Shown here one piece after another: positions 28,050 through 63,848 of a stretch of DNA of 64,000 bases (positions within the stretch are counted from its first letter, which is position 1; the number at the start of each line of letters is the position of its first letter). The notes under the pieces are model-generated. The model was not told the DNA's origin. It saw nothing but the letters and a program-made list of their open reading frames with translations, and searched no databases. Both the position numbers and the translations under genes were made by a program. Source of the stretch: Promethearchaeota archaeon (GTDB lineage Archaea; Asgardarchaeota; Lokiarchaeia; Sigyniarchaeales; SOKP01); the NCBI GenBank assembly GCA_016840085.1, contig JAEOTA010000054.1, positions 104,327 to 168,326 on the forward strand. The letters run 5' to 3'.

Positions 28050-29264
28050 GTGAGGAGATTGAAGGAGGATATCTATTTTTACTTAGATTTAACCAAGGAT
28101 TTGCTAAAAAAGAAAGAAATTATAAAAGCTATTAAATATTACATTGAGGAAAAAAATAAGATTAATATAAAAGGCCATTATTCTATTCTCATTTTCCAAG
28201 AAGAAGGTAATCCAATATTCATTACTGATAAAAAAGATGCAAATATTATCGCTAATTCTATTGAAGAAAATTGGAAATTTAGACTAAAAAAGCAGAGTTA
28301 TTTTGAAAATGGCTTGTTTTATATATTTTCTTATATAGCTGAAACTGTAAGAAAAAAATCAAAATACAATAGGATTATAATAATAACAGATACCCCATCT
28401 GATTTATCTGAAGATTATCAAGAAGCTCTATTTAATTTGGTATCAAAAATAAAAAATTTCCCTACTTTTATTGACATTATTCGCATTTCTGAAGGCGATA
28501 CAAGATTTTTCAGTGATGACGTTAAATTGAACATGTTAGCCGCTGATACGAAGGGATCTATCGTTTATATTCAAGATAGAAAAGAGTTTTCTGATAGAAT
28601 TAAGAAGTTAGTAAAATCTAAACAATTCATCAGTACTTTTGTTGATAAACCAGATATAATTAAAATAAGTAAAGAAGATTATGTGTTTTATAATCATTTG
28701 GCAAAATCATTGAAAAAACCAGAAGACGCACAGGGATTAAAATGTTATCTTTGTAATGAAGAAGTATGTCCGATATGTACAGATGTCTATGATATTCCAT
28801 TAATATGCGAGGATTGTAATTCAAGTTTTCACCATTGCTGTATTACAAACCATGTTATAAATCATAACGTAGGTATACCAAATATTTTTCGTTGTCCTGG
28901 TCCATCTTGTGATGTCCTATTAAAAATTGATGAGGATGAGATTATTGAAGTATCTGGTGAAGTAGAGGTGAGTTCTGTGAAAGATTATATGGCAAAAGAA
29001 GTTCTTCAAAAGATCACTAAGGAACGCCCTAAAGTAAAGCCATTACCGGTATCAACACAAATGATAGAACAAACTAAAGATAAAAGAATAGATACAGTAC
29101 CAGTTACTAGCTATAGTACAGCAGAAAAAAATAATAAAACTGTAAGAGTTGGAGGCTTTTTTGGTAAAATGTATACTGTAAAGAAAGTCAGTGATAAAAT
29201 TGTTTATGAAAAACTGACAAAAGCAACTAGTTTTAAACCAAATAATGATATGTCAGAGAAATAG
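28050..29264 (+). CDS. vWA-like + C4HC3-type Zn-finger protein (paralog 1)
   Basis: RIIIITD, FIDIIRI, DTKG vWA-like elements; CYLC-CPIC-CEDC-HHCC-CPGPSC. Confidence 0.7.
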   Translation: MRRLKEDIYFYLDLTKDLLKKKEIIKAIKYYIEEKNKINIKGHYSILIFQEEGNPIFITDKKDANIIANSIEENWKFRLKKQSYFENGLFYIFSYIAETVRKKSKYNRIIIITDTPSDLSEDYQEALFNLVSKIKNFPTFIDIIRISEGDTRFFSDDVKLNMLAADTKGSIVYIQDRKEFSDRIKKLVKSKQFISTFVDKPDIIKISKEDYVFYNHLAKSLKKPEDAQGLKCYLCNEEVCPICTDVYDIPLICEDCNSSFHHCCITNHVINHNVGIPNIFRCPGPSCDVLLKIDEDEIIEVSGEVEVSSVKDYMAKEVLQKITKERPKVKPLPVSTQMIEQTKDKRIDTVPVTSYSTAEKNNKTVRVGGFFGKMYTVKKVSDKIVYEKLTKATSFKPNNDMSEK

Positions 29265-29508
29265 GAAATCCTCCTTGCCTGCTATTTTGTACAAATGAGA
29301 TATCTATATTGGAGTTATTTTCAATATTAATGAGAAGTAGAACCAACAATTATAACATCTTTATAACATAAATAATTAAAAAAAACACTACTAAATTAAG
29401 TATAACGGATTTGAGAAATATAAATAAAAATAAATAGCAATTCTAATATTATTCTTTTAAATTTTTACGAGATTTTTTATAAACTTAAACATTGAATTTG
29501 ATAGCAAG

Positions 29509-30834
29509 ATGTTAACAAGATCAGATGCAGTAAATTCAGAGGAATTCATATTCTATTTAGATTTAATTGGAGATTTTACGAAGAAAAAGACTTTAATAAA
29601 AGCAATTAACACTTTCATCAAAGAAAAAGACAAATTTAATGCTTTAAGCTCATATGGATTAGTAATTTTTCAAAAAGATGAAAATCCTGTAAACGTATAT
29701 GATTTGAAAGATTCAAAAACCGTTTTAAATACAATTAATGATGTGTGGGATACTCGAGAAACTGAGCAAAGCTATTTAGAAAATGGCTTATATGAAATTC
29801 TTGCTTACATTTTTAGAAAAAGTAGAGAAACAAGAAAAAATTATCGCGTAATTATTATTTCAGATACTCCTAGTAAATTACCAGAAGATTACTACAATGC
29901 TCTTTATGATTTACTTATTAAAGCTAAGAAATTTTTTGCTTTTATTGATATAATTCGCGTTGGTATAGAGAAATTTTATGAAGATGATGTAAAATTAAAA
30001 GTTATATCTAGTGAGACTCGAGGAGGGATGTTTTATTGTCAAGATGAAAAGTTATTGCAAAATATCTTAGGTTCTTTGGTTCAAAATAAGAGAGAATTTA
30101 AAGTTATTAAAACAGAAGAATCTGATCAGATTTTGGAAGAAGACAAGGTTTTTTATGAACGTTTAGCAGTCGATTTAATCAGCCTTTCTTCTGAAGATGA
30201 AGAGATATGTACTATTTGTGAACAAGAATTATGTCCAATCTGTGAAGCCCATTCTGATGAAATACATAAATGTTTTAATTGTGGTGCTAAATTTCATAGT
30301 TGTTGCGCAGCCAAATATTCACTTGCTAAAAATATAGGATTTAAGCATATATTTCGATGCCCTCAATGTGATACATTATTAAAGTTAGATGAAGAATTCG
30401 TTAATATGGTCTATGAAGAAGATTTAGAAGAGGAATTATCAGATATAGACCTAACCGTGATGGAAATGGAGAAACCATACGAAGAAGACCTTGAACAAGA
30501 AGAAGTTATAGAAGACCTTGAGGTTGAAGAGCAAATAGTAAAACAAGAAGAACTAAGTTCAAAAATATCAGAACTTCATCCCCCTCCCGAAACGATAAAA
30601 AAAGTTAAGGTTGGAGGTTTTTTCGGTAAAGAAATCGAAATAAAAATGAAAAAGGACGCAACTTCGCACACAGAAGTCCCAGTAGCAATTAAAGAACCAG
30701 AAGAACCTATCTCTATTACATCTCTAAGTCCACCCAGGAAAAAAACAACAAGGACAATAAAACTATGTAGAATATGTGGGACTACGCTCCAAAATGCTAC
30801 TATTTGCCCCACATGTGGCGCAAAACTAGATTAA
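29509..30834 (+). CDS. vWA-like + C4HC3-type Zn-finger + C-terminal Zn ribbon protein (paralog 2)
   Basis: Colinear with paralog 1; CTIC-CPIC-CFNC-HSCC-CPQC; terminal CRICG...CPTCG. Confidence 0.7.
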   Translation: MLTRSDAVNSEEFIFYLDLIGDFTKKKTLIKAINTFIKEKDKFNALSSYGLVIFQKDENPVNVYDLKDSKTVLNTINDVWDTRETEQSYLENGLYEILAYIFRKSRETRKNYRVIIISDTPSKLPEDYYNALYDLLIKAKKFFAFIDIIRVGIEKFYEDDVKLKVISSETRGGMFYCQDEKLLQNILGSLVQNKREFKVIKTEESDQILEEDKVFYERLAVDLISLSSEDEEICTICEQELCPICEAHSDEIHKCFNCGAKFHSCCAAKYSLAKNIGFKHIFRCPQCDTLLKLDEEFVNMVYEEDLEEELSDIDLTVMEMEKPYEEDLEQEEVIEDLEVEEQIVKQEELSSKISELHPPPETIKKVKVGGFFGKEIEIKMKKDATSHTEVPVAIKEPEEPISITSLSPPRKKTTRTIKLCRICGTTLQNATICPTCGAKLD

Positions 30835-34759: not shown

Positions 34760-35183
34760 TTTTAAAAAAATTAATAGAAAAAATTTTAAATTTTTTAGAA
34801 AACTGATAGGAAAGTAAAGTTCAATAGAAGGAATTGAGTTTGAGAAATAAAATTTTACATTTGCTAATATTTTTAAAATTTATAAATTTTAAATAGTAAA
34901 ACAATTTAATAAACAATATTAGAAATTTTAATTTAGAAAATTATTTGCGTATTTATCATCTTTAAATGGCGAAAAAAATGAAAAATAAAAAAAATCTGAG
35001 TTTAATAATATTACTTTTATTATTTCTTCAATCTTTTATCGTATAATCTACTTTAATTTTAATAATAAAGAGGGAAATGAAGTAAAAAATATCGATCTGG
35101 GATTATCTGATATTATTATAGGAAATTATACCGTTCCAGGAGTCTCAGTATCGATTCCTTCACATCAATTAATTAAAATAGGC

Positions 35184-38100
35184 ATGCTTGGTGATTTGGA
35201 GCATGTCACTGGAGATCATAATTGGAAAGGAGCATTACTGGCTGCAGAGGAAATTAACGAAGCAGGTGGAATTGATATTTATGGTAATGGTACAAATCAT
35301 TATATAGGATTAGCTGCTGAGGATACAGATGAAGCTAATGAAACATTGGTTGTATCTAAGGGAGTAGCTGCTGCAAATAGAATGATATCGTATAATGATC
35401 CACATTTCATTATAGGTGGCTTTCGAAATGAATCTGTTTCAGCATATCTTGAGCCTGTTATGGACGCCCAAATCCCATTCTTAGGTACTGGTATTGCAGA
35501 TAATGAATTTTGCCAAAAAGTTAATGATTCATATAATAGATATAAATATATCTTTCGTGTTATGCCAATGAATTCGACTTCACTCGGTGTAGCAATCCTT
35601 TATTATATTGGGCATCTTACTCAAGGTCTAAGTGTGCAATATGGTGGAACACTGAATAAAGTTGCTATTCTTCGAGAAGATTTACCTTGGACGGAAGGAT
35701 TAAGTTTCATGCTTAATTATTATTTACCAGATTGGTTTCTAACGGTTGAAGAAGAAATTGCCTTTCCTATAGATGCAACTGAAGAAGATTTTAATATTTA
35801 TTGGAACACTATCGACAGTGCAGGGGTCCAATTAACAATTCCAATTGTCTCAAGCCGTGCTGCGATAACAATGGTAAAATCTTATAGAGAAAATAAACCT
35901 AAATGCCTTTTAGCTGGTATAAATGTATTAGCCCAATTAGATTCTTATTGGGATGATACTGAAGGAGCGTGTCAATATGAAATCTTAATGCAAGCTATTC
36001 ATCGAACCGATAAAACTCCTAAAACAATTCCATTTTGGGATAGTTTTGTAGAAAAATATAATATCGAACCATATTATATTGGGGTTGGATCCTATGATGC
36101 TGTTAGATTGTTGGCAAATGTTAGTGATAGTATTAACTCTTTTAATTCAGATGATATTGTTATTGCGTTGGAGGAATTTAATCAAACTAACTCTTTTATC
36201 GGTGTTAGTTGTAATATAGCTTTTACTAATGCTCATGATTTAGTAGAAGGATATCCTTACGCTTTTACTCTTTTTTGTCAATGGCAATTAGACGGGAGTA
36301 AAGTTGTGGTCCGTTCATATGTTCCTTCGCCAAATCCAGGTTATTACCCTACTTCTCTTGCAACGGGGCCTATTTCCGTTCCATATTGGGGTATTAATAA
36401 TCTTGTAGCAGCACAGGATTTACCAGGAAATTTTTCATTAGATAGTACTGCTGAAAGTCCTGATCCCGATGGATCTTTCAATCTGACATGGTCAAATTCT
36501 GTAGGGGCAGATAATTATTCCGTATACCTCTATGATAAACCTATTACATATATAAATAAAAGCCTTACCTTACTCGCTAATCAAAATGCAACAACTCCAT
36601 TTTCAATATCCGGTTTAGAAAGTGGTGATTATTTTTTTGTTGTAGTAGCTTACAATGAAACAGGTGAAACATTATCAAATAATGTTAACGTAACCGTAGA
36701 ACTCCCTGGACCGGGTGCTTTTACACTAACTAGTGATGCTGACTCCCCAGATATCGATGGTGCTTTTAATTTAACATGGACAGCTTCAGATGGAGCAGAT
36801 AATTATTCCGTATTTTCATATAATAGATTTATAACTTGGATTAATGATAGTACTACAATATATGCTAATCAATCTGCGATACCACCATTTCCAATTATAG
36901 AATTGGAATCTGGCGATTATTATTTTGTTGTAGTCGCTTACAACGAAGCAGGAGATACTCTGTCGAATAATCTCTATGTTAAAGTAGATCCTAGTGGTTA
37001 TTGGATATTAAATCCATTAATTATTGATGATACGGGTACAGGAGATTATACCTGGTCGCAAGTTGCTACTCAACCATGGTGCAGTGGTTCTGGAACCTCA
37101 GTTAATCCATATATACTTGAAACTCTTAAAATTGATGGTAAAAATTCTGAGAATTGTATTATTATAAGGAATTCTAAAATTTATTTTACAATAAAGGATA
37201 GTGTCTTATATAATTCTGGTTCTAATTCCAACCATGGTGGTCTGAAACTAGTATCTGTTTCAAATGGAGAATTGATCTCTAATAACTGCTCTCGGAATAA
37301 TGCCAATGGGATTATTTTAGATTCTTGTCATGATATTGATATGTCGGTAAACTCAGTGAGTCAAAATGAGTTGAGTGGGATACTACTTATTAATAGTACT
37401 AATATCAACATCAAGAATAATAATGAGACAATTAATCAAAACAAACTCTATGGAATTTATTTAGATAATAGTCATAATAATGATATTACGGGAAATACAA
37501 TAAATTATAATCGAATTGGAATTTATTTTTATGAATCTAACTATAATACCATAGCAAATAATGATTTAAGATATAATGATAAACCTTATGAAGAAGTTGA
37601 TTGTGTTGGAAATACCTTCGAAAATAACCTTGGTATAAGAAGGGAAACTCCATTTCCTTTTGACATCTTATTAATTATTCTTATAGTAGTGATTGCTATT
37701 GTTGGAGTGATAGCTGCTGCGTTAATAGTAAAGAAAAGAATATCAATGCCAGAGAAGAAGGAAAAAGAAATAAGTGAGTCCAAAAAACAAAAAATTAGAA
37801 GGAAGCTTGAAGAAAAATTAAATTTTGTTGATCATCTCATAAAGGAAAATAAGATAAAATTAGCTTATAAAAATTTAGGAAAAGTAAAAGATACAGCGGA
37901 TCAATATGAATTCTTCGATATTTTTAATAAAGCGAATGAAAAAGTCGAAATTTGTAAGGAAGTAGAAGCAGGAATTTATAAAGAAGTGAAAAAAGAAGAT
38001 ATAGTTTTACCTAGAGTAGCTCAAGTGGAGGAAAAAGTAAAAGAAGAAAAAGAAATTATACCAGTAATAGAAAAAAGAAAAGAATTCAATATATTTCTCA

Positions 38101-38477
38101 GTTATTCTACATTAGACTCAATTCGTTTTCAAATAGACAAAATCGCTAAAAATTTAGAAAAATTTCCAGAAATAAAAAAAGTATATTATTATAGTAAAGA
38201 TAGTGGTCAAAATATAGTGGAATATATGGAAGAGACATTAAGTGTGTGTAATATCTTTGTTTTATTTTGTACTAAGCACTCTAAGAAATCAAAAGCTGTT
38301 GAAGGGGAGTGGCAATCAGCTTACCAATTAGTTAAGAAAAACATAATGAAAATTATACCTGTTTATGAAGATGAAGAAGATGTACCCATCTTATTAATTC
38401 CTATGTTGAATGTCAGATATGATAAAGAGGATTTTAATGGATTTATAAACAAACTGTACCAAGAAATTTTAAGATAA
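35184..38477 (+). CDS. Single-pass receptor-like protein: branched-chain amino acid-binding (Venus flytrap) domain, 2 FN3-like repeats, beta-helix, TM, cytoplasmic TIR domain; N-terminus frameshifted (true start near 34966/34978)
   Basis: KIGMLG...GALLAAEEINEAGGI, YDAVRLLA; FN3-like FNLTW repeats; NosD-like GIxL repeats; TM near 37665-37730; IFLSYS...FVLFCTKHSKKSKAVEGEW...IIPV TIR. Confidence 0.85.
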   Translation: MLGDLEHVTGDHNWKGALLAAEEINEAGGIDIYGNGTNHYIGLAAEDTDEANETLVVSKGVAAANRMISYNDPHFIIGGFRNESVSAYLEPVMDAQIPFLGTGIADNEFCQKVNDSYNRYKYIFRVMPMNSTSLGVAILYYIGHLTQGLSVQYGGTLNKVAILREDLPWTEGLSFMLNYYLPDWFLTVEEEIAFPIDATEEDFNIYWNTIDSAGVQLTIPIVSSRAAITMVKSYRENKPKCLLAGINVLAQLDSYWDDTEGACQYEILMQAIHRTDKTPKTIPFWDSFVEKYNIEPYYIGVGSYDAVRLLANVSDSINSFNSDDIVIALEEFNQTNSFIGVSCNIAFTNAHDLVEGYPYAFTLFCQWQLDGSKVVVRSYVPSPNPGYYPTSLATGPISVPYWGINNLVAAQDLPGNFSLDSTAESPDPDGSFNLTWSNSVGADNYSVYLYDKPITYINKSLTLLANQNATTPFSISGLESGDYFFVVVAYNETGETLSNNVNVTVELPGPGAFTLTSDADSPDIDGAFNLTWTASDGADNYSVFSYNRFITWINDSTTIYANQSAIPPFPIIELESGDYYFVVVAYNEAGDTLSNNLYVKVDPSGYWILNPLIIDDTGTGDYTWSQVATQPWCSGSGTSVNPYILETLKIDGKNSENCIIIRNSKIYFTIKDSVLYNSGSNSNHGGLKLVSVSNGELISNNCSRNNANGIILDSCHDIDMSVNSVSQNELSGILLINSTNINIKNNNETINQNKLYGIYLDNSHNNDITGNTINYNRIGIYFYESNYNTIANNDLRYNDKPYEEVDCVGNTFENNLGIRRETPFPFDILLIILIVVIAIVGVIAAALIVKKRISMPEKKEKEISESKKQKIRRKLEEKLNFVDHLIKENKIKLAYKNLGKVKDTADQYEFFDIFNKANEKVEICKEVEAGIYKEVKKEDIVLPRVAQVEEKVKEEKEIIPVIEKRKEFNIFLSYSTLDSIRFQIDKIAKNLEKFPEIKKVYYYSKDSGQNIVEYMEETLSVCNIFVLFCTKHSKKSKAVEGEWQSAYQLVKKNIMKIIPVYEDEEDVPILLIPMLNVRYDKEDFNGFINKLYQEILR

Positions 38478-43197: not shown

Positions 43198-44118
43198 ATG
43201 CCGCAGAAAACAATTTTATTTGATCTCGCTCATAATGAAATGCTAAATATAGAGGATGCTGAATTTTCCGACTTTCTAAGTCTTTTGAAAAGAATGGACA
43301 TTAAGATAAAGAAAACTGAGAATGAGCATCTTAAAAAGAATATGTTAAGTAATGTTGATCTCTTAGTAATTGGCAATCCAATTGATGATTATTTTTCCAG
43401 TATTGAAGTTAAATATATTGTTGATTTTGTTCGAAGTGGAGGGGGATTGCTTCTTTTAAGTGAATATGGCGCGGACTACCTTCAAAAAACTAATTTAAAT
43501 GATATTTCAGGAAAATTTGGGATTCTTTTTGAAAAGAATATAATTAAAGAAAGTACTAGGGAGAATCAAAATATTTCTAGCATATTACATATTAATAAAT
43601 TTTCAAAACATCAAATCACTAAAAATCTAAGAGAAATTGTGGTAGGAGGGGCGTGCTCTCTCCTTTTAAGTAAAGATGCAAAACCAATATTTCAAATTAA
43701 TAAACAATATGTGTGGTCAGAAGTTTTTAATAGCAGTACTGAACAATGGATTAAAGATGAGGAAGAGACACAACAAATTATAGCAGCATTTACAGAATTT
43801 GGGCAAGGAAAGGTATTAGCTATTGGAGATATTGATGTATTTACAACTGATTCTAATATTGGAATTAATTCCTTGGATAATCAAAAATTTTTGCAAAATG
43901 CCATAAATTGGTTAATAGAGCCAGTAAAAGAACAAATGGTGATAAGTTTTTTACTTAATCAATTAGGTGATCTTCAGTATGAAATCAGAGAAACCAATAA
44001 AATATTAAATAACATTATTGAAACGATCACAATATTAGAAAAAAGAATAAGTTATTTAGAGAAAAACTCGAGTTTTCACAAAAAAAGTTTAAAAAATGAA
44101 AAGAATAGCGAAAAGTAA
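43198..44118 (+). CDS. GIFT-domain (IFT52/GldG/DUF4350-like) protein with C-terminal coiled coil
   Basis: TILFDLAHNE, DLLVIGNP, FVRSGGGLLLL, TNLN, GQGKVLAIGD, NQKFLQNAINWL; heptad tail. Confidence 0.75.
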   Translation: MPQKTILFDLAHNEMLNIEDAEFSDFLSLLKRMDIKIKKTENEHLKKNMLSNVDLLVIGNPIDDYFSSIEVKYIVDFVRSGGGLLLLSEYGADYLQKTNLNDISGKFGILFEKNIIKESTRENQNISSILHINKFSKHQITKNLREIVVGGACSLLLSKDAKPIFQINKQYVWSEVFNSSTEQWIKDEEETQQIIAAFTEFGQGKVLAIGDIDVFTTDSNIGINSLDNQKFLQNAINWLIEPVKEQMVISFLLNQLGDLQYEIRETNKILNNIIETITILEKRISYLEKNSSFHKKSLKNEKNSEK

Positions 44119-44120
44119 TC

Positions 44121-44654
44121 ATGGGAGAAGTCACTTATAAAATTGTCGTTTTTGGAAATGGTGGAGTAGGGAAAACTACTCTACTTCATCGTTATATAAC
44201 AGGGAAATTCTTTTTAGACACAAAAGTGACGATTGGTTTGGACATTGCGGTGAAATACCTGGAAATAGAAGGTATTAAGATTACGCTTCAGATATGGGAT
44301 TTCGGAGGTGAAGATCGGTTTAGATTCCTTTTACCTAATTATACCCGTGGTGCATTTGGAGGAATTTTCATGTATGATACTACACGACCTCATAGTTTAC
44401 GGAATATTGATGAGTGGTTAGAAATATTTAGAAGAGAACAAATTAAAAAATTTCATGCTCCATTAATATTAGTTGGAGGAAAGTCAGATCTTATAACAAG
44501 GAGATTAATTTCTGAAAAAGAAGCAAAAAAAGTAGCAAAATCCTATAAAATTTCTCATCACTTTGAATGTTCTGCTAAAACGGGTGAAAATGTAGAATTA
44601 ATATTTGATACTTTAATAAGAACAATTATGAGAAAAGCAAGTCTCCTTAAATAG
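44121..44654 (+). CDS. Rab-like small GTPase
   Basis: GNGGVGKTT, TIGLD, WDFGGEDRFR, GKSD, CSAK. Confidence 0.92.
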   Translation: MGEVTYKIVVFGNGGVGKTTLLHRYITGKFFLDTKVTIGLDIAVKYLEIEGIKITLQIWDFGGEDRFRFLLPNYTRGAFGGIFMYDTTRPHSLRNIDEWLEIFRREQIKKFHAPLILVGGKSDLITRRLISEKEAKKVAKSYKISHHFECSAKTGENVELIFDTLIRTIMRKASLLK

Positions 44655-60254: not shown

Positions 60255-63200
60255 ATGAAATATGTGAAAAAAAAAATGAAATACAAAATTGTACTGATAG
60301 TTTACATATTGATTTTAGTAGCTATTCCTTTAAATCTTATAAGTACATCTTTTGTTTTAAGTAGCTACGAATCGGTTGATAAGGAAAACCCATACCCCTC
60401 TGATGCATTCACAATTACTCTAAACGGAAAGAACTATGTAGCTGAATATATAACACGAGAAAAAGTCGAGGAAATGAAGAAACAATACGAGCTAAGAGAT
60501 TCACACAAAGATTATAATCAAATTATCGATGGCCATGGAACTGGATATGCACCCCCCACACCAGAAGACCTTGAAAAATTAATTGGTAAAGTATCTATAT
60601 TAGGTATAATTCCTGAAGCTGGTTCTCCGAATTATGGGGCTTCTGCGGATATTTCAACAGAAATCTATTTCCCTGTAGTAGGGGATCAGGCTATGCAGGG
60701 TTCTTGTACAGCATGGGCGAATGCTTATTATGCATATGGATACATGGAAGCAAAAGACTATGGATGGGATGCAAGTTCCGGAAACACGGATTACTTATTA
60801 AGTCCAGCATGGGTTTATAATAAAGTCGCAGCTTATGATTATGGTTCTGCGCCTGTTGAAGTTGCTCAATTAATGCTGGATTGGGGAGTATCAACTTTAA
60901 GTACAATGCCATATAATGATATGGATGTTGACAGCTGGGGAGAAGAACCTGCATGGAGAGAAGCACCTTACCATAGACCTCTTATTTATAACCCAATTAT
61001 CTTTACAGGACCTGAAACAATAGATATAATTAAGGCTCTTCTCGATAGTGAAATTCCTGTTACATTTGGTATTGATGCATATCAATTTGATCCTGGATTT
61101 GCAGATGGTAATTATATAATTTCTTCCGATGAATATTATTACGATCCTGGCGATCTAAACCATGCTCAATGCTTTGTTGGATATGATGATTCAATAACAG
61201 ATGATGGCGATGTTGGGGCATTTAGAGTAGTGAATTCTTGGGGTCTTGGTTGGGGTGATAATGGGTATTATTGGCTGACTTATAATGCATTCATGGAATT
61301 TGGAGAAGATCCTTGGCAATCTATACTTTATTACGATGACAGAATAGATTATAACCCAAGTCTAATAGGCACATGGGAATTTAGTGCCGCACCTACTCGA
61401 ATGGATGATATAATTACATTAGGAGTAGGTCCACATGATTCACCTTTAGATACGACTATTCCGCTCTATGATAATGATGTAGTAAATTTATTTCCTGAAT
61501 TTATGGCTTTAGATATATCAGATTTTCAAACATATTATGATGTAGACCCTGATGTATTTTTCTTTTTAGATGTTGGGTCATCTACAACAACAGGCATAAT
61601 TTCTTCTTTTCTAGTTGAAAGATATATAGGAGGGACTTTAGTAGAAATTTCACCAGAATCTCTAGATACTCCCGCAAATACTCCAGGACATGTGAATTGC
61701 ACATTTAAAACTTTTGACCACGAGTTAAAAGTGTTGTTAGAACTTCCCACAAATCCTGAAATTGGTTATATTTACCCCGTTAAAGCAAGTGTTATCAACA
61801 TAGGTCTTAATGCTGAAACTGATGTTGGTCTGTCTTTATCTATTGATGGTGTTCTTAAAGATTCAATCATTATTCCTACTCTCACTGTTGGCGCAAGTGT
61901 AACAATTACCTATATGTGGATAGTAAATGAAGTTAAAACATTTACTTTTAATGCATACTCTCCTCCTGTATCTGGTGAGACCTACATTTCAAATAATAAT
62001 AAAACTATGCAGCTAAATATATTTCAGAATTATATAATGGTACCAGGTTATCCTTATAGTTGGATAGATGCGTCTGGTGGAACATTGTTACCTTTAGGTG
62101 ATGACGACTATGCTGCAATAGCTTTACCCTTTAGTTTTACTTTTTACGATCAAACATTTTCAACAGTATATTTAAGCGAAAATGGATATCTTAGTTTCAC
62201 TGATTCAACACCTGATGATTACTCTAACGATTTCATTCCTTCAGATGATATAGAGAATTATTACTTAATAGCTCCATTTTGGGATGATCTTTACATACCT
62301 GATGGAGGAGATATTTATGTACAATCATTTGGGACTTATTGGGTGGCAGAATGGCTAAATATATATCATTGGAATGATCCTTTAGTCGGATCTTTTGAAG
62401 TAATTTTATATAACACAGGTGAAATTGTGTTTAATTATGATTATCTTGACTACACTACTTCTGGTTATACATGCGGGTTAAATTTAGGTGTGGATACAGA
62501 TTATTATAATTCATATCAAGGATTAGACGATTCTACAGATAATTTTGCGATCCAATTTTATCAAGAACCTTTAGATTTCACTAATGACCTATGTGTTACT
62601 ATGGAAGTGCCTGAATCTCCTGAAATCGGTAATACTTACATTATTAATGCAACTGTTTTCAATACGGGAAATACTGTTGAGAATATTGTCGATTTGTTTC
62701 TGGAGCTTGATGAAGCAGTTGTGAATTCAACTACAATTCCAACTCTTTCTATTGGTGAAAGTGAAACCATTACTTATGAATGGACTCCAACTGGATATGG
62801 CTCCTATAATTTCACTGCTTGGGCTCCACCTGTATCTGGTGAAACCTTCTTAAGTAACAATATTGTAACTGAACTATTGCTCATTGTCGAAGTCCATTTA
62901 TTTGATACCATGTATATAGACTATGATTATTCTAATTATTACGGGGAATTTCATGATTTTACATTCTCATATTCTTATTATTCAGGAGATCTATTTTCTA
63001 ATATCTGGTTTATGGACGGTTCTCCAGCTACTTCATGGATAGTTGATAGCAAGACAAGAATTATGACGAATTCTATATTTGGAGATGGTACTCATACTTT
63101 TATATGGATCTTCACACATGTGAATCTCGGCGACGAAGTTTTGATAGTTACCGATATGCTTGGTGATCATGTTTACACTGTGGCAGATGAACAAACTTAT

Positions 63201-63848
63201 GATCTTCCTAATTTTGGTACTATAGATGTGTGGGTACTAGAAGATATAACTATACCCGGTAGTTTTGCCTGGTACGAAAAAACTACAGGAATATTAGTAA
63301 AGGGTAAATTCTACGATGGTACTGGTTATTGGTGGTTTGCATTAGATTGTACTGATACGAATGTCGAATTCCAGTATCCTCCTGATACATTTATACTTTC
63401 CAGTACTGCTGACGATCCTGATGATGATGGTGATTTTGATTTAACTTGGTCTACATCAGATTGGGCTAATACTTATACAGTATATGAATCATCAAGTTAT
63501 ATTACCGAAATTGACGGAGCTGTAACTCCTTTAATAGAAGACACAACAGATCTTGAATTTTCTTGTTCAGGCTATGATAGCGGTACATATTTCTTCATTG
63601 TTCAAGCTATGAATGAGTATGGAGAAATACTTTCAAATTGTTATGAAATCACTGTATCAATTCCTGCAAACGGAGAGGAAGAGGAAGAAGAGGAAGAAGA
63701 GGAAGAGGAAGAAGAGGAAGAGGAAGAAGAGGAGGAAGAAGGAGATGGTGCAATTCCAGGATATAGCTTATATATTCTTATAGCATCTATAGCACTTACA
63801 TCAATTCTCATTTGGAAAAAGCGATATAAACATACCAAAAATATGTAA
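60255..63848 (+). CDS. Secreted papain-like (C1A) cysteine peptidase with CARDB/Ig-like domains, FN3-like module, poly-Glu linker and IPGY-TM sorting signal
   Basis: DQAMQGSCTAW (Q/C), NHAQCFVGY (H), VNSWG (N); two CARDB-like NATVFNTG repeats; AIPGY + TM + basic tail. Confidence 0.9.
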   Translation: MKYVKKKMKYKIVLIVYILILVAIPLNLISTSFVLSSYESVDKENPYPSDAFTITLNGKNYVAEYITREKVEEMKKQYELRDSHKDYNQIIDGHGTGYAPPTPEDLEKLIGKVSILGIIPEAGSPNYGASADISTEIYFPVVGDQAMQGSCTAWANAYYAYGYMEAKDYGWDASSGNTDYLLSPAWVYNKVAAYDYGSAPVEVAQLMLDWGVSTLSTMPYNDMDVDSWGEEPAWREAPYHRPLIYNPIIFTGPETIDIIKALLDSEIPVTFGIDAYQFDPGFADGNYIISSDEYYYDPGDLNHAQCFVGYDDSITDDGDVGAFRVVNSWGLGWGDNGYYWLTYNAFMEFGEDPWQSILYYDDRIDYNPSLIGTWEFSAAPTRMDDIITLGVGPHDSPLDTTIPLYDNDVVNLFPEFMALDISDFQTYYDVDPDVFFFLDVGSSTTTGIISSFLVERYIGGTLVEISPESLDTPANTPGHVNCTFKTFDHELKVLLELPTNPEIGYIYPVKASVINIGLNAETDVGLSLSIDGVLKDSIIIPTLTVGASVTITYMWIVNEVKTFTFNAYSPPVSGETYISNNNKTMQLNIFQNYIMVPGYPYSWIDASGGTLLPLGDDDYAAIALPFSFTFYDQTFSTVYLSENGYLSFTDSTPDDYSNDFIPSDDIENYYLIAPFWDDLYIPDGGDIYVQSFGTYWVAEWLNIYHWNDPLVGSFEVILYNTGEIVFNYDYLDYTTSGYTCGLNLGVDTDYYNSYQGLDDSTDNFAIQFYQEPLDFTNDLCVTMEVPESPEIGNTYIINATVFNTGNTVENIVDLFLELDEAVVNSTTIPTLSIGESETITYEWTPTGYGSYNFTAWAPPVSGETFLSNNIVTELLLIVEVHLFDTMYIDYDYSNYYGEFHDFTFSYSYYSGDLFSNIWFMDGSPATSWIVDSKTRIMTNSIFGDGTHTFIWIFTHVNLGDEVLIVTDMLGDHVYTVADEQTYDLPNFGTIDVWVLEDITIPGSFAWYEKTTGILVKGKFYDGTGYWWFALDCTDTNVEFQYPPDTFILSSTADDPDDDGDFDLTWSTSDWANTYTVYESSSYITEIDGAVTPLIEDTTDLEFSCSGYDSGTYFFIVQAMNEYGEILSNCYEITVSIPANGEEEEEEEEEEEEEEEEEEEEEEGDGAIPGYSLYILIASIALTSILIWKKRYKHTKNM
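63675..63740 (+). repeat. GAR trinucleotide tract encoding 22 consecutive Glu
   Basis: 66 nt of GAG/GAA codons. Confidence 0.95.

Follow-up and report, generated by a model that had tools for sequence, protein, structure and literature searches.

Can a TIR domain in an Asgard archaeon be governed from outside the cell, through a membrane receptor with a Toll-like layout? The question is raised by a gene on the forward strand of the 64,000-nucleotide stretch of Lokiarchaeia (Promethearchaeota) DNA analysed here, termed the window. The original prediction read this gene as a LivJ-type Venus-flytrap, two FN3-like repeats, a beta-helix, one transmembrane helix (TM), a helical linker and a C-terminal TIR domain, and Pfam and AlphaFold recover all of these elements where it had placed them. 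Within a long open frame (34989-38477), a spacer (35041-35168) leads into a flytrap ectodomain of the LivJ/HAAT type, PBP class I (35169-36398), identified by profile, AlphaFold model and Pfam (Peripla_BP_6, aa 10-340 of the window ORF, E 1.7e-15). Two FN3-like beta-sandwich repeats follow (36417-36995), clear in the model and matched weakly, below cut-off, by fn3 (aa 430-501); they share 193 of 281 bases with each other. A right-handed, NosD-like beta-helix stalk (36999-37649; NosD/Beta_helix, aa 656-815) completes the ectodomain. The TM (37674-37730) is the only hydrophobic segment of the ORF (aa 831-849), appears in the model, and runs into a basic stop-transfer stretch. Beyond it lie a TPR-like three-helix bundle (37776-37976), defined by the model and by comparison with relatives, which carry up to five copies or add a PCI winged helix after it; a charged, probably disordered spacer (37977-38084, pLDDT under 50); and the TIR domain (38085-38474; TIR_2, aa 970-1071, 1.4e-11).

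The flytrap and FN3 model (pLDDT 93) finds its best solved matches among LivJ-type binding proteins. The model of the TM, three helices and TIR (pLDDT 80) finds them among TIR domains, including Cat1 (Z 14.6, rmsd 1.8, 115 aligned residues) and SARM1 (Z 13.8, rmsd 2.8, 122 aligned). Profile and fold searches were needed for this assignment: a single-sequence PDB search with the TIR returned chance matches alone, and an ESM Atlas feature search gave nothing beyond weak, generic TIR matches.

The C-terminus is thus a TIR fold, and it is predicted to lie inside the cell. All 21 N-glycosylation sequons precede the TM and none follows it, and the positive-inside rule fits the predicted topology in 110 of the 117 TM-bearing family members. 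Intact members almost certainly have a signal peptide and a glycosylated ectodomain, cross the membrane once and hold the TIR in the cytoplasm. The proposal of a transmembrane TIR receptor in an Asgard archaeon therefore stands for the gene family; it probably does not hold for the window allele, which is frameshifted just after its signal peptide.

The gene start had been taken as 35184, and this position must be corrected. The ORF from 35184 lacks a signal peptide, its best 12-residue hydropathy being 0.41 against 2.2-3.3 in 12 orthologues. The true 5' end lies upstream in another frame (34966-35046, starting at ATG 34966 or 34978), where hydropathy reaches 2.84, inside the orthologue range, and the encoded N-terminus matches those of the 12 intact orthologues. 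DNA alignment to two orthologues locates a one-base loss near 35040 (35039-35041, position +/-3) that splits the signal peptide from the downstream frame. An assembly error was rejected as the cause, as two re-assembled contig sets, which may derive from the source samples, match the window at the break letter for letter and with no gap; the frameshift is confirmed for that population, the only one to give coverage of the site.

The orthologues are intact at the break and require no shift of frame there, so the window allele is probably a pseudogene. Judged from its sequence, it is very likely non-functional, and its product would probably not arrive at the surface. Continued expression of this one copy, through slippage at an A8 run (34987-34994) or initiation at the internal ATG 35184, is quite unlikely. 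The run does lie upstream of the break, no stop interrupts the downstream frame from 34989 on, and the other 3.4 kb are free of further lesions. However, the slipped product would have a weak hydrophobic core (1.67 vs 2.2-3.3 in orthologues), the product from ATG 35184 would have none, and A8/T8 runs occur at 0.66 per kb in this genome. A second TIR gene of the same genome is 5'-truncated, and two intact paralogues remain.

The window gene is a member of a large modular family, confined almost wholly to the Lokiarchaeia, in which one TIR is combined with many different ectodomains. Ectodomains are exchanged on a conserved TIR, and at the window locus this has happened between close strains. 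Beta-helices form the basis of 31 of 45 sampled ectodomains, the others including propeller, PKD and SBP_bac_5 types; some members have four TMs and almost no ectodomain, and others are soluble (LRR-TIR, GTPase-TIR and tandem TIR). One LRR-TIR, P0064, was considered as a literal Toll-like receptor and rejected, for it has no TM. Two unrelated solute-binding folds have been recruited onto the TIR, and a single origin of the flytrap-TIR combination was rejected by an AU test (p 2e-5; 62 rows, with two long-branch and 34 anchored rows left out, under a midpoint root only), which indicates that the two were joined more than once. The TIR tree, with few columns and many open forks, was used as a hint only. 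We found no published description of membrane TIR receptors in Asgard archaea, Lokiarchaeota or prokaryotes at large in a search that covered sources other than subscription journals, and the asCOG preprint makes no mention of TIR; the receptor family thus appears to be undescribed so far.

The flytrap is 42% identical to the binding protein of the genome's own LivKHMGF ABC transporter. As the original prediction held, no ABC permease or ATPase gene adjoins the window gene; the sole LivHM genes of the genome are found on a different contig, next to a binding protein of their own. Putative cleft residues (R81, W169, S223, N/D247, Q251 and Y298) are common to receptor flytraps and transporter binding proteins, and because of this match gating by a ligand is plausible, although most family members use other ectodomains. 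In LivJ, a canonical Ser/Thr pair binds the alpha-amino-acid group; the profile alignment puts Asn82 and Ala105 at these positions, in a register that is uncertain at <20% identity to solved proteins. Homologous flytraps sit mostly on anchored surface proteins without a tail (54 of 109). Taken together, we rate small-molecule gating by the flytrap as possible, at slightly less than an even chance. The number of FN3 and beta-helix spacers varies among relatives, a pattern more in keeping with clustering than with precise allostery; a homodimer prediction for the flytrap scored 0.00 and is uninformative in either direction.

The Glu expected of NAD-cleaving TIRs is indeed retained, as E1042 (38307-38309), which profile alignment matches to the Glu of solved bacterial TIRs, and 204 of the 209 TIRs in the family keep it. 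The dN/dS of the TIR (0.10-0.22) compares with 0.09-0.21 for housekeeping neighbours. The family TIR is likely to be an active NADase. Cyclic ADPR, the product suggested earlier, is unlikely: cyclisation requires an alphaC Trp (10.1101/2022.05.07.491051), and the family carries Ala, Ser or Pro at that position, Ala1038 (38295-38297) in the window gene. SPARTA, which also lacks this Trp, yields linear ADPR (10.1101/2023.07.14.549122). With the Trp replaced, linear ADP-ribose would be the likelier product.

A candidate reader of such a signal occurs in relatives. It joins a RelA/SpoT-like domain, whose site is partly degenerate, to TPRs and a SLOG domain of the Pfam family LSDAT_prok, which is homologous to MHR1/2, where TRPM2 binds ADPR (PMC13143021). 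The protein is single-copy in 15 of 154 genomes, all 15 of which carry a close clade of the TIR, and it is found in 0 of 120 genomes without that clade, a statistic that is overstated since related genomes are not independent. In 12 of the 15 a TIR gene or fragment lies no more than about 5 kb away from its gene. Nineteen genomes, many >95% complete, have the clade and no SLOG protein; the partnership is therefore not obligatory. The window genome (98.8% complete) is one of them; neither this partner there, nor an effector at the window locus or its orthologues, was found. Its four SIR2 proteins were considered as ThsA-like readers and set aside: at 831-1709 aa they are long, their ends are TPR-like, and none matched the SLOG profile. 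On balance, the SLOG protein is probably the reader of the TIR signal.

The explanation that we favour, to which we give an even chance, is a type-I Lokiarchaeia membrane receptor that passes an outside ligand on to NAD+ cleavage by the TIR and, in relatives, to a SLOG reader. The ligand would close the flytrap or cluster receptors, and either event would gather several TIRs, a requirement shared by every TIR NADase studied. The gathered TIRs would split NAD+ into nicotinamide and, in preference to a glycocyclic isomer, linear ADP-ribose or a conjugate of ADPR, and the single-copy RelA/SpoT-like-TPR-SLOG protein encoded beside the receptor would read this signal, so that many sensors converge on one reader in the manner of Thoeris. 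The fuller picture, an outside-in network of rapidly reshuffled single-pass receptors in which some flytraps are true small-molecule sensors, the TIRs are NADases and ADP-ribose is read by a TRPM-type SLOG, is offered more tentatively, as a rather unlikely whole.

The strongest competitor, still unlikely, is an antiviral guard or decoy: the ectodomains would be copies of host surface proteins to which viruses or rival cells attach, and clustering by a particle rather than by a metabolite would fire the TIR, draining NAD+ directly in a SPARTA-like abortive infection. It would account for the ectodomain dN/dS (0.29-0.39 for flytrap and beta-helix), which exceeds that of the transporter binding protein (0.21) and of housekeeping genes (0.09-0.21), and for an ectodomain swap at the window locus between close strains whose flanks are 90-94% identical. 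Copy numbers of 0 to 15 within one genus, broken alleles both here and in genome G102, the missing Trp shared with SPARTA and the frequency of tail-less versions of the same ectodomains point the same way. Yet the dN/dS is far below 1, the cleft of the flytrap shows conservation, the neighbours of the window gene are housekeeping genes that are syntenic across genomes, PADLOC gave no match for a defence system, and a dedicated SLOG partner suggests signalling instead of direct depletion.

It is improbable that the flytrap plays a passive part, as a stalk or adhesion module, with the TIR added to various surface glycoproteins to report envelope stress or cell-cell contact. The predominance of beta-helix ectodomains, the nearly bare four-TM members and the degenerate cleft of a second flytrap-TIR type would suit such a role, but type-1 flytraps retain a transporter-like cleft (W169 in 18/18, N/D247 in 18/18), and the repeated recruitment of flytraps, and of two unrelated solute-binding folds, argues against it. 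Least probable is a non-enzymatic scaffold like animal TLR/IL-1R, recruiting the soluble TIR proteins of the family as adaptors: MyD88, MAL and Hydra TRR-2 TIRs are tied among the top structural matches, but the catalytic Glu is nearly invariant, bacterial TIRs come first in the profile search, and the window genome's four TIRs are all membrane-type, with no soluble adaptor found there.

Like intact orthologues, animal Toll-like and IL-1 receptors are type-I proteins that have a signal peptide, a glycosylated ectodomain, a single membrane pass and a TIR fold in the cytoplasm, and like the Lokiarchaeia family they form expanded paralogues with variable ectodomains; IL-17 receptors, with an FN3 ectodomain and SEFIR tail, belong to the same comparison. 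TLRs bear LRRs and IL-1Rs Ig domains, whereas the archaeal receptor bears flytrap, FN3 and beta-helix, and its TIR keeps the catalytic Glu, unlike animal TLR TIRs, which lack enzymatic activity (PMC11249213). Since the family lies almost wholly within one Asgard class, the resemblance, which is limited to layout, is most simply explained by convergence. Thoeris types I and III (ThsB TIR sensors plus a SLOG-containing effector) share several TIR sensors with the catalytic Glu and one SLOG-bearing neighbour, and a NAD-derived signal is expected by this comparison (10.64898/2025.12.03.692087). The Lokiarchaeia sensors, however, are outward-facing membrane receptors; their SLOG is of the TRPM type, fused to RelA/SpoT-like and TPR domains rather than to SIR2; the cADPR-isomer types of Thoeris have an aromatic alphaC residue; and the Thoeris effector shares the operon, whereas here SLOG genes accompany other family loci. 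SPARTA TIR-APAZ and Cat1, NAD-depleting effectors that rank with the best structural matches, are soluble proteins; their trigger is nucleic acid or cyclic oligoadenylate and does not come from an extracellular domain. LivJ/HAAT proteins share the two-lobed fold and sequence family of the flytrap, which in the receptor is fused to stalk, TM and TIR. Class C GPCRs and receptor guanylyl cyclases also have Venus-flytrap heads, and the GABA-B ectodomain is among the structural matches. Receptor guanylyl cyclases even follow a single-pass flytrap-TM-enzyme plan; outputs in the two groups are 7TM or kinase-homology/cyclase, in contrast to the single TM and TIR of the archaeal receptor. In sequence, the flytrap lies much nearer to ABC binding proteins of its own archaeal lineage and was therefore recruited independently of those heads.

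To our knowledge, the prokaryotic TIR enzymes described so far are soluble proteins that detect infection from within the cell, and the membrane-spanning TIR receptors that we know of are those of animals and are non-enzymatic. If the proposed pathway is correct, it would be a signalling network not known in prokaryotes, in which a Toll-like layout was invented independently in archaea and coupled to a TRPM2-like ADPR signal. With this family it can be tested directly whether an extracellular cue can gate a TIR enzyme, and whether TIR signalling serves the sensing of nutrients or neighbours as well; the family also shows how domain shuffling can produce a Toll-like layout.

The open reading frame at 35184-38477 of the window encodes 1097 residues, along which Pfam places, in order, Peripla_BP_6, a weak fn3 match, NosD/beta-helix and TIR_2, with a single hydrophobic helix at residues 831-849. 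Alignment-based AlphaFold models show a two-lobed flytrap and two beta-sandwiches in the ectodomain (pLDDT 93) and, in the C-terminal part, the transmembrane helix (TM), a three-helix bundle, a disordered spacer and the TIR domain (pLDDT 80). The flytrap model matches LivJ-type binding proteins best and GABA-B ectodomains next. The TIR model superimposes on Cat1 (Z 14.6, rmsd 1.8, 115 aligned), C. elegans TIR-1, Hydra TRR-2, MyD88 and SARM1 are tied within 1 Z, and Foldseek ranks SPARTA first. These matches bear out the domain series of the original prediction, from flytrap through FN3, beta-helix, TM and linker to a C-terminal TIR fold. The 21 N-glycosylation sequons are all N-terminal to the TM, and Lys/Arg residues are commoner after the TM than before it in 110 of 117 TM-bearing relatives; from these distributions the TIR is predicted to be cytoplasmic, as proposed, and not outside the cell.

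The receptor flytrap shares 42% identity with the binding protein encoded in the genome's sole LivKHMGF operon. The survey of other outputs that the original prediction suggested covered 109 homologous flytraps, of which 54 are borne by anchored surface proteins without a tail and 22 by TIR receptors, while another 19 are plain binding proteins; the TIR was the only enzyme-like cytoplasmic output among them. TIR-linked flytraps fall at three positions among their homologues and a single clade of them is rejected (AU test, p 2e-5), which indicates that the flytrap-TIR join had more than one origin, or one origin followed by reshuffling. Putative cleft residues are common to type-1 receptor flytraps and transporter binding proteins and are degenerate in a second flytrap-TIR type; in the receptor flytrap, Asn and Ala probably occupy the canonical Ser/Thr positions for amino-acid binding. 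The second type (comparison loci L054:1132-6624 and L055:1103-6592) comprises SBP_bac_5, beta-helix, flytrap, TM, a more distant TIR (38% identity) and an extra 240-residue C-terminal domain without a Pfam match.

The named relatives belong to Promethearchaeota/Lokiarchaeia, and we found no paper describing this Lokiarchaeia TIR receptor family. Its TIR profile yields 190 clusters (50% identity, E under 1e-30), and a TM precedes the TIR in 117 of 192 members examined. Beta-helices predominate among the family ectodomains, which also include FG-GAP and other propellers, PKD and SBP_bac_5; soluble members bear LRR, Ras/Roc, PCI or TPR. Scoring five candidates per genome across 400 Asgard genomes gave matches in 80, 79 of them in the window's own class, and copy number within the genus ranges from 0 to 15. 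The window's genome has four TIR genes, all membrane-type: the frameshifted window receptor, an intact flytrap-TIR paralogue (contig C63), a beta-helix-TIR gene (C46) and a 5'-truncated gene (C82). Directly upstream of the C63 paralogue lies a tail-less flytrap-FN3-TM gene (L001:11592-13775), possibly a co-receptor, decoy or ectodomain donor; a ribonucleotide-reductase-like gene there (L001:13915-17652) appears, from its translation alone, to be interrupted by an intein carrying a homing-endonuclease-like insert. A 1197-residue surface protein of the window (60255-63845) has the receptor's FN3 module and ends in a Glu-rich tract and C-terminal anchor.

Glu1042 falls in the same alignment column as the Glu of solved bacterial TIRs, and Glu is kept at this position in 204 of 209 TIR domains. 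Four residues earlier stands Ala, Ser or Pro, not Trp; ADPR cyclisation by TIRs requires that Trp (10.1101/2022.05.07.491051), and SPARTA, with Gly there, produces linear ADPR (10.1101/2023.07.14.549122).

Clustering the neighbours of TIR receptors revealed a RelA_SpoT-TPR-LSDAT_prok protein of ~860 residues (the SLOG protein), a candidate reader of the TIR signal. Of 154 genomes of the order, 15 have its close clade, each as a single copy. The close TIR clade is present in all 15, and the SLOG protein in none of 120 genomes without that clade, kin not being independent; the corresponding counts within the genus are 12/0/8/33, with the same dependence among kin. In 12 of the 15 cases the SLOG gene and a TIR gene or fragment are no more than ~5 kb apart; of the remaining SLOG genes, one is at a contig end and two are on short contigs. 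LSDAT is the SLOG family whose homologue in TRPM2 is the ADPR-binding MHR1/2 region (PMC13143021); this relationship would fit a linear ADPR signal. The SLOG protein is missing from 19 TIR-bearing genomes, including the window's, where no LSDAT, RelA_SpoT or SLOG-protein profile match was found and the two genes that border the SLOG gene in relatives adjoin each other directly. A conserved 526-residue coiled-coil protein without a Pfam match (L091:67-1644, contig C37 of this genome) recurs beside TIR receptors and the SLOG gene in relatives; its gene stands at the contig start, so an upstream TIR gene could be missing from the assembly. A shorter (~670 residues) RelA/SpoT-like-SLOG family without the C-terminal domain (L074-L082) is found in further genomes of the family, most of which lack the close TIR clade.

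We give an even chance to a pathway in which ligand binding or clustering outside the cell would assemble the TIRs, the assembled TIRs would cleave NAD+ to an ADPR-type signal, and the SLOG protein, where present, would read it. Such a mode of working would resemble Thoeris, but the receptor locus has no effector and the TIR no cyclising Trp. A guard or decoy antiviral receptor that drains NAD+ is a possible but unlikely alternative, and a passive ectodomain reporting contact or stress is improbable. A TLR-like scaffold is very improbable. The Toll/IL-1R-like topology originally predicted holds for the layout but not for the ectodomain, which is not of TLR/IL-1R type, and animal TLR TIRs are non-enzymatic (PMC11249213), whereas the receptor TIR keeps enzyme-type features.

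Under the preferred reading, NAD+ cleavage by assembled TIRs, the pathway would be partly decayed in the window's genome. Hydropathy found no export signal in the frame 35184-38477 as given. A typical signal peptide is encoded at 34966-35046, a short frame differing from that of the remainder, which is open from 34989; 12 orthologues start with the same signal peptide, continuous with the spacer in one frame. Aligning the DNA with two orthologues locates the loss of one base between 35039 and 35040. Contigs of two runs, possibly the source samples, match the window gap-free here, which argues against an assembler slip though it does not show the allele to be general. Slippage at the A8 run would yield a far weaker hydrophobic core, and this genome (29.5% GC) has many runs of that kind. 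The window allele is probably non-functional, judging from its sequence.

The receptor slot, between aminotransferase/DAP_DH and PiT/DUF47 genes, has syntenic counterparts in at least five other genomes. Between two orthologous loci the aminotransferases are 94% identical (dS 0.15) and the TIRs 93%, the flytraps merely 61% (dS 0.84). Head-to-head with the receptor at orthologous loci (L058:4780-7575 and L059:4805-7561) is a divergent 918-931-residue surface protein with propeller-like repeats, acidic repeats and a C-terminal TM, swapped along with the flytrap (60% identity, dS 0.86) and missing from the window. The relative G102 has flanks 90-94% identical to the window's; its allele is a mosaic, itself frameshifted, behind a decayed TIR 3' remnant (L102:6769-6981). 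This remnant, closely resembling the window's TIR and followed by a duplicated DAP_DH gene end, is a trace of an earlier allele displaced at the slot. In another relative, G008, the slot has an additional 1790-residue beta-helix-TM-TIR gene and an LRR-PCI protein (L037:3846-11441); in L051 and L052, similar LRR proteins adjoin SBP_bac_5-TIR receptors. The window also encodes, at 28050-30834, a tandem pair of paralogues that combine a VWA-like domain with a Cys-rich zinc finger and are conserved upstream of the locus in relatives; at 43198-44654 it encodes an IFT52_GIFT-like protein, then a Rab-like small GTPase. Estimates of dN/dS, which do not demonstrate positive selection, are 0.32-0.39 (flytrap), 0.10-0.22 (TIR), 0.09-0.21 (housekeeping neighbours) and 0.21 (transporter binding protein). 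These comparisons indicate birth-and-death of the receptor locus with ectodomain exchange, a turnover that would be compatible with conflict-driven evolution.
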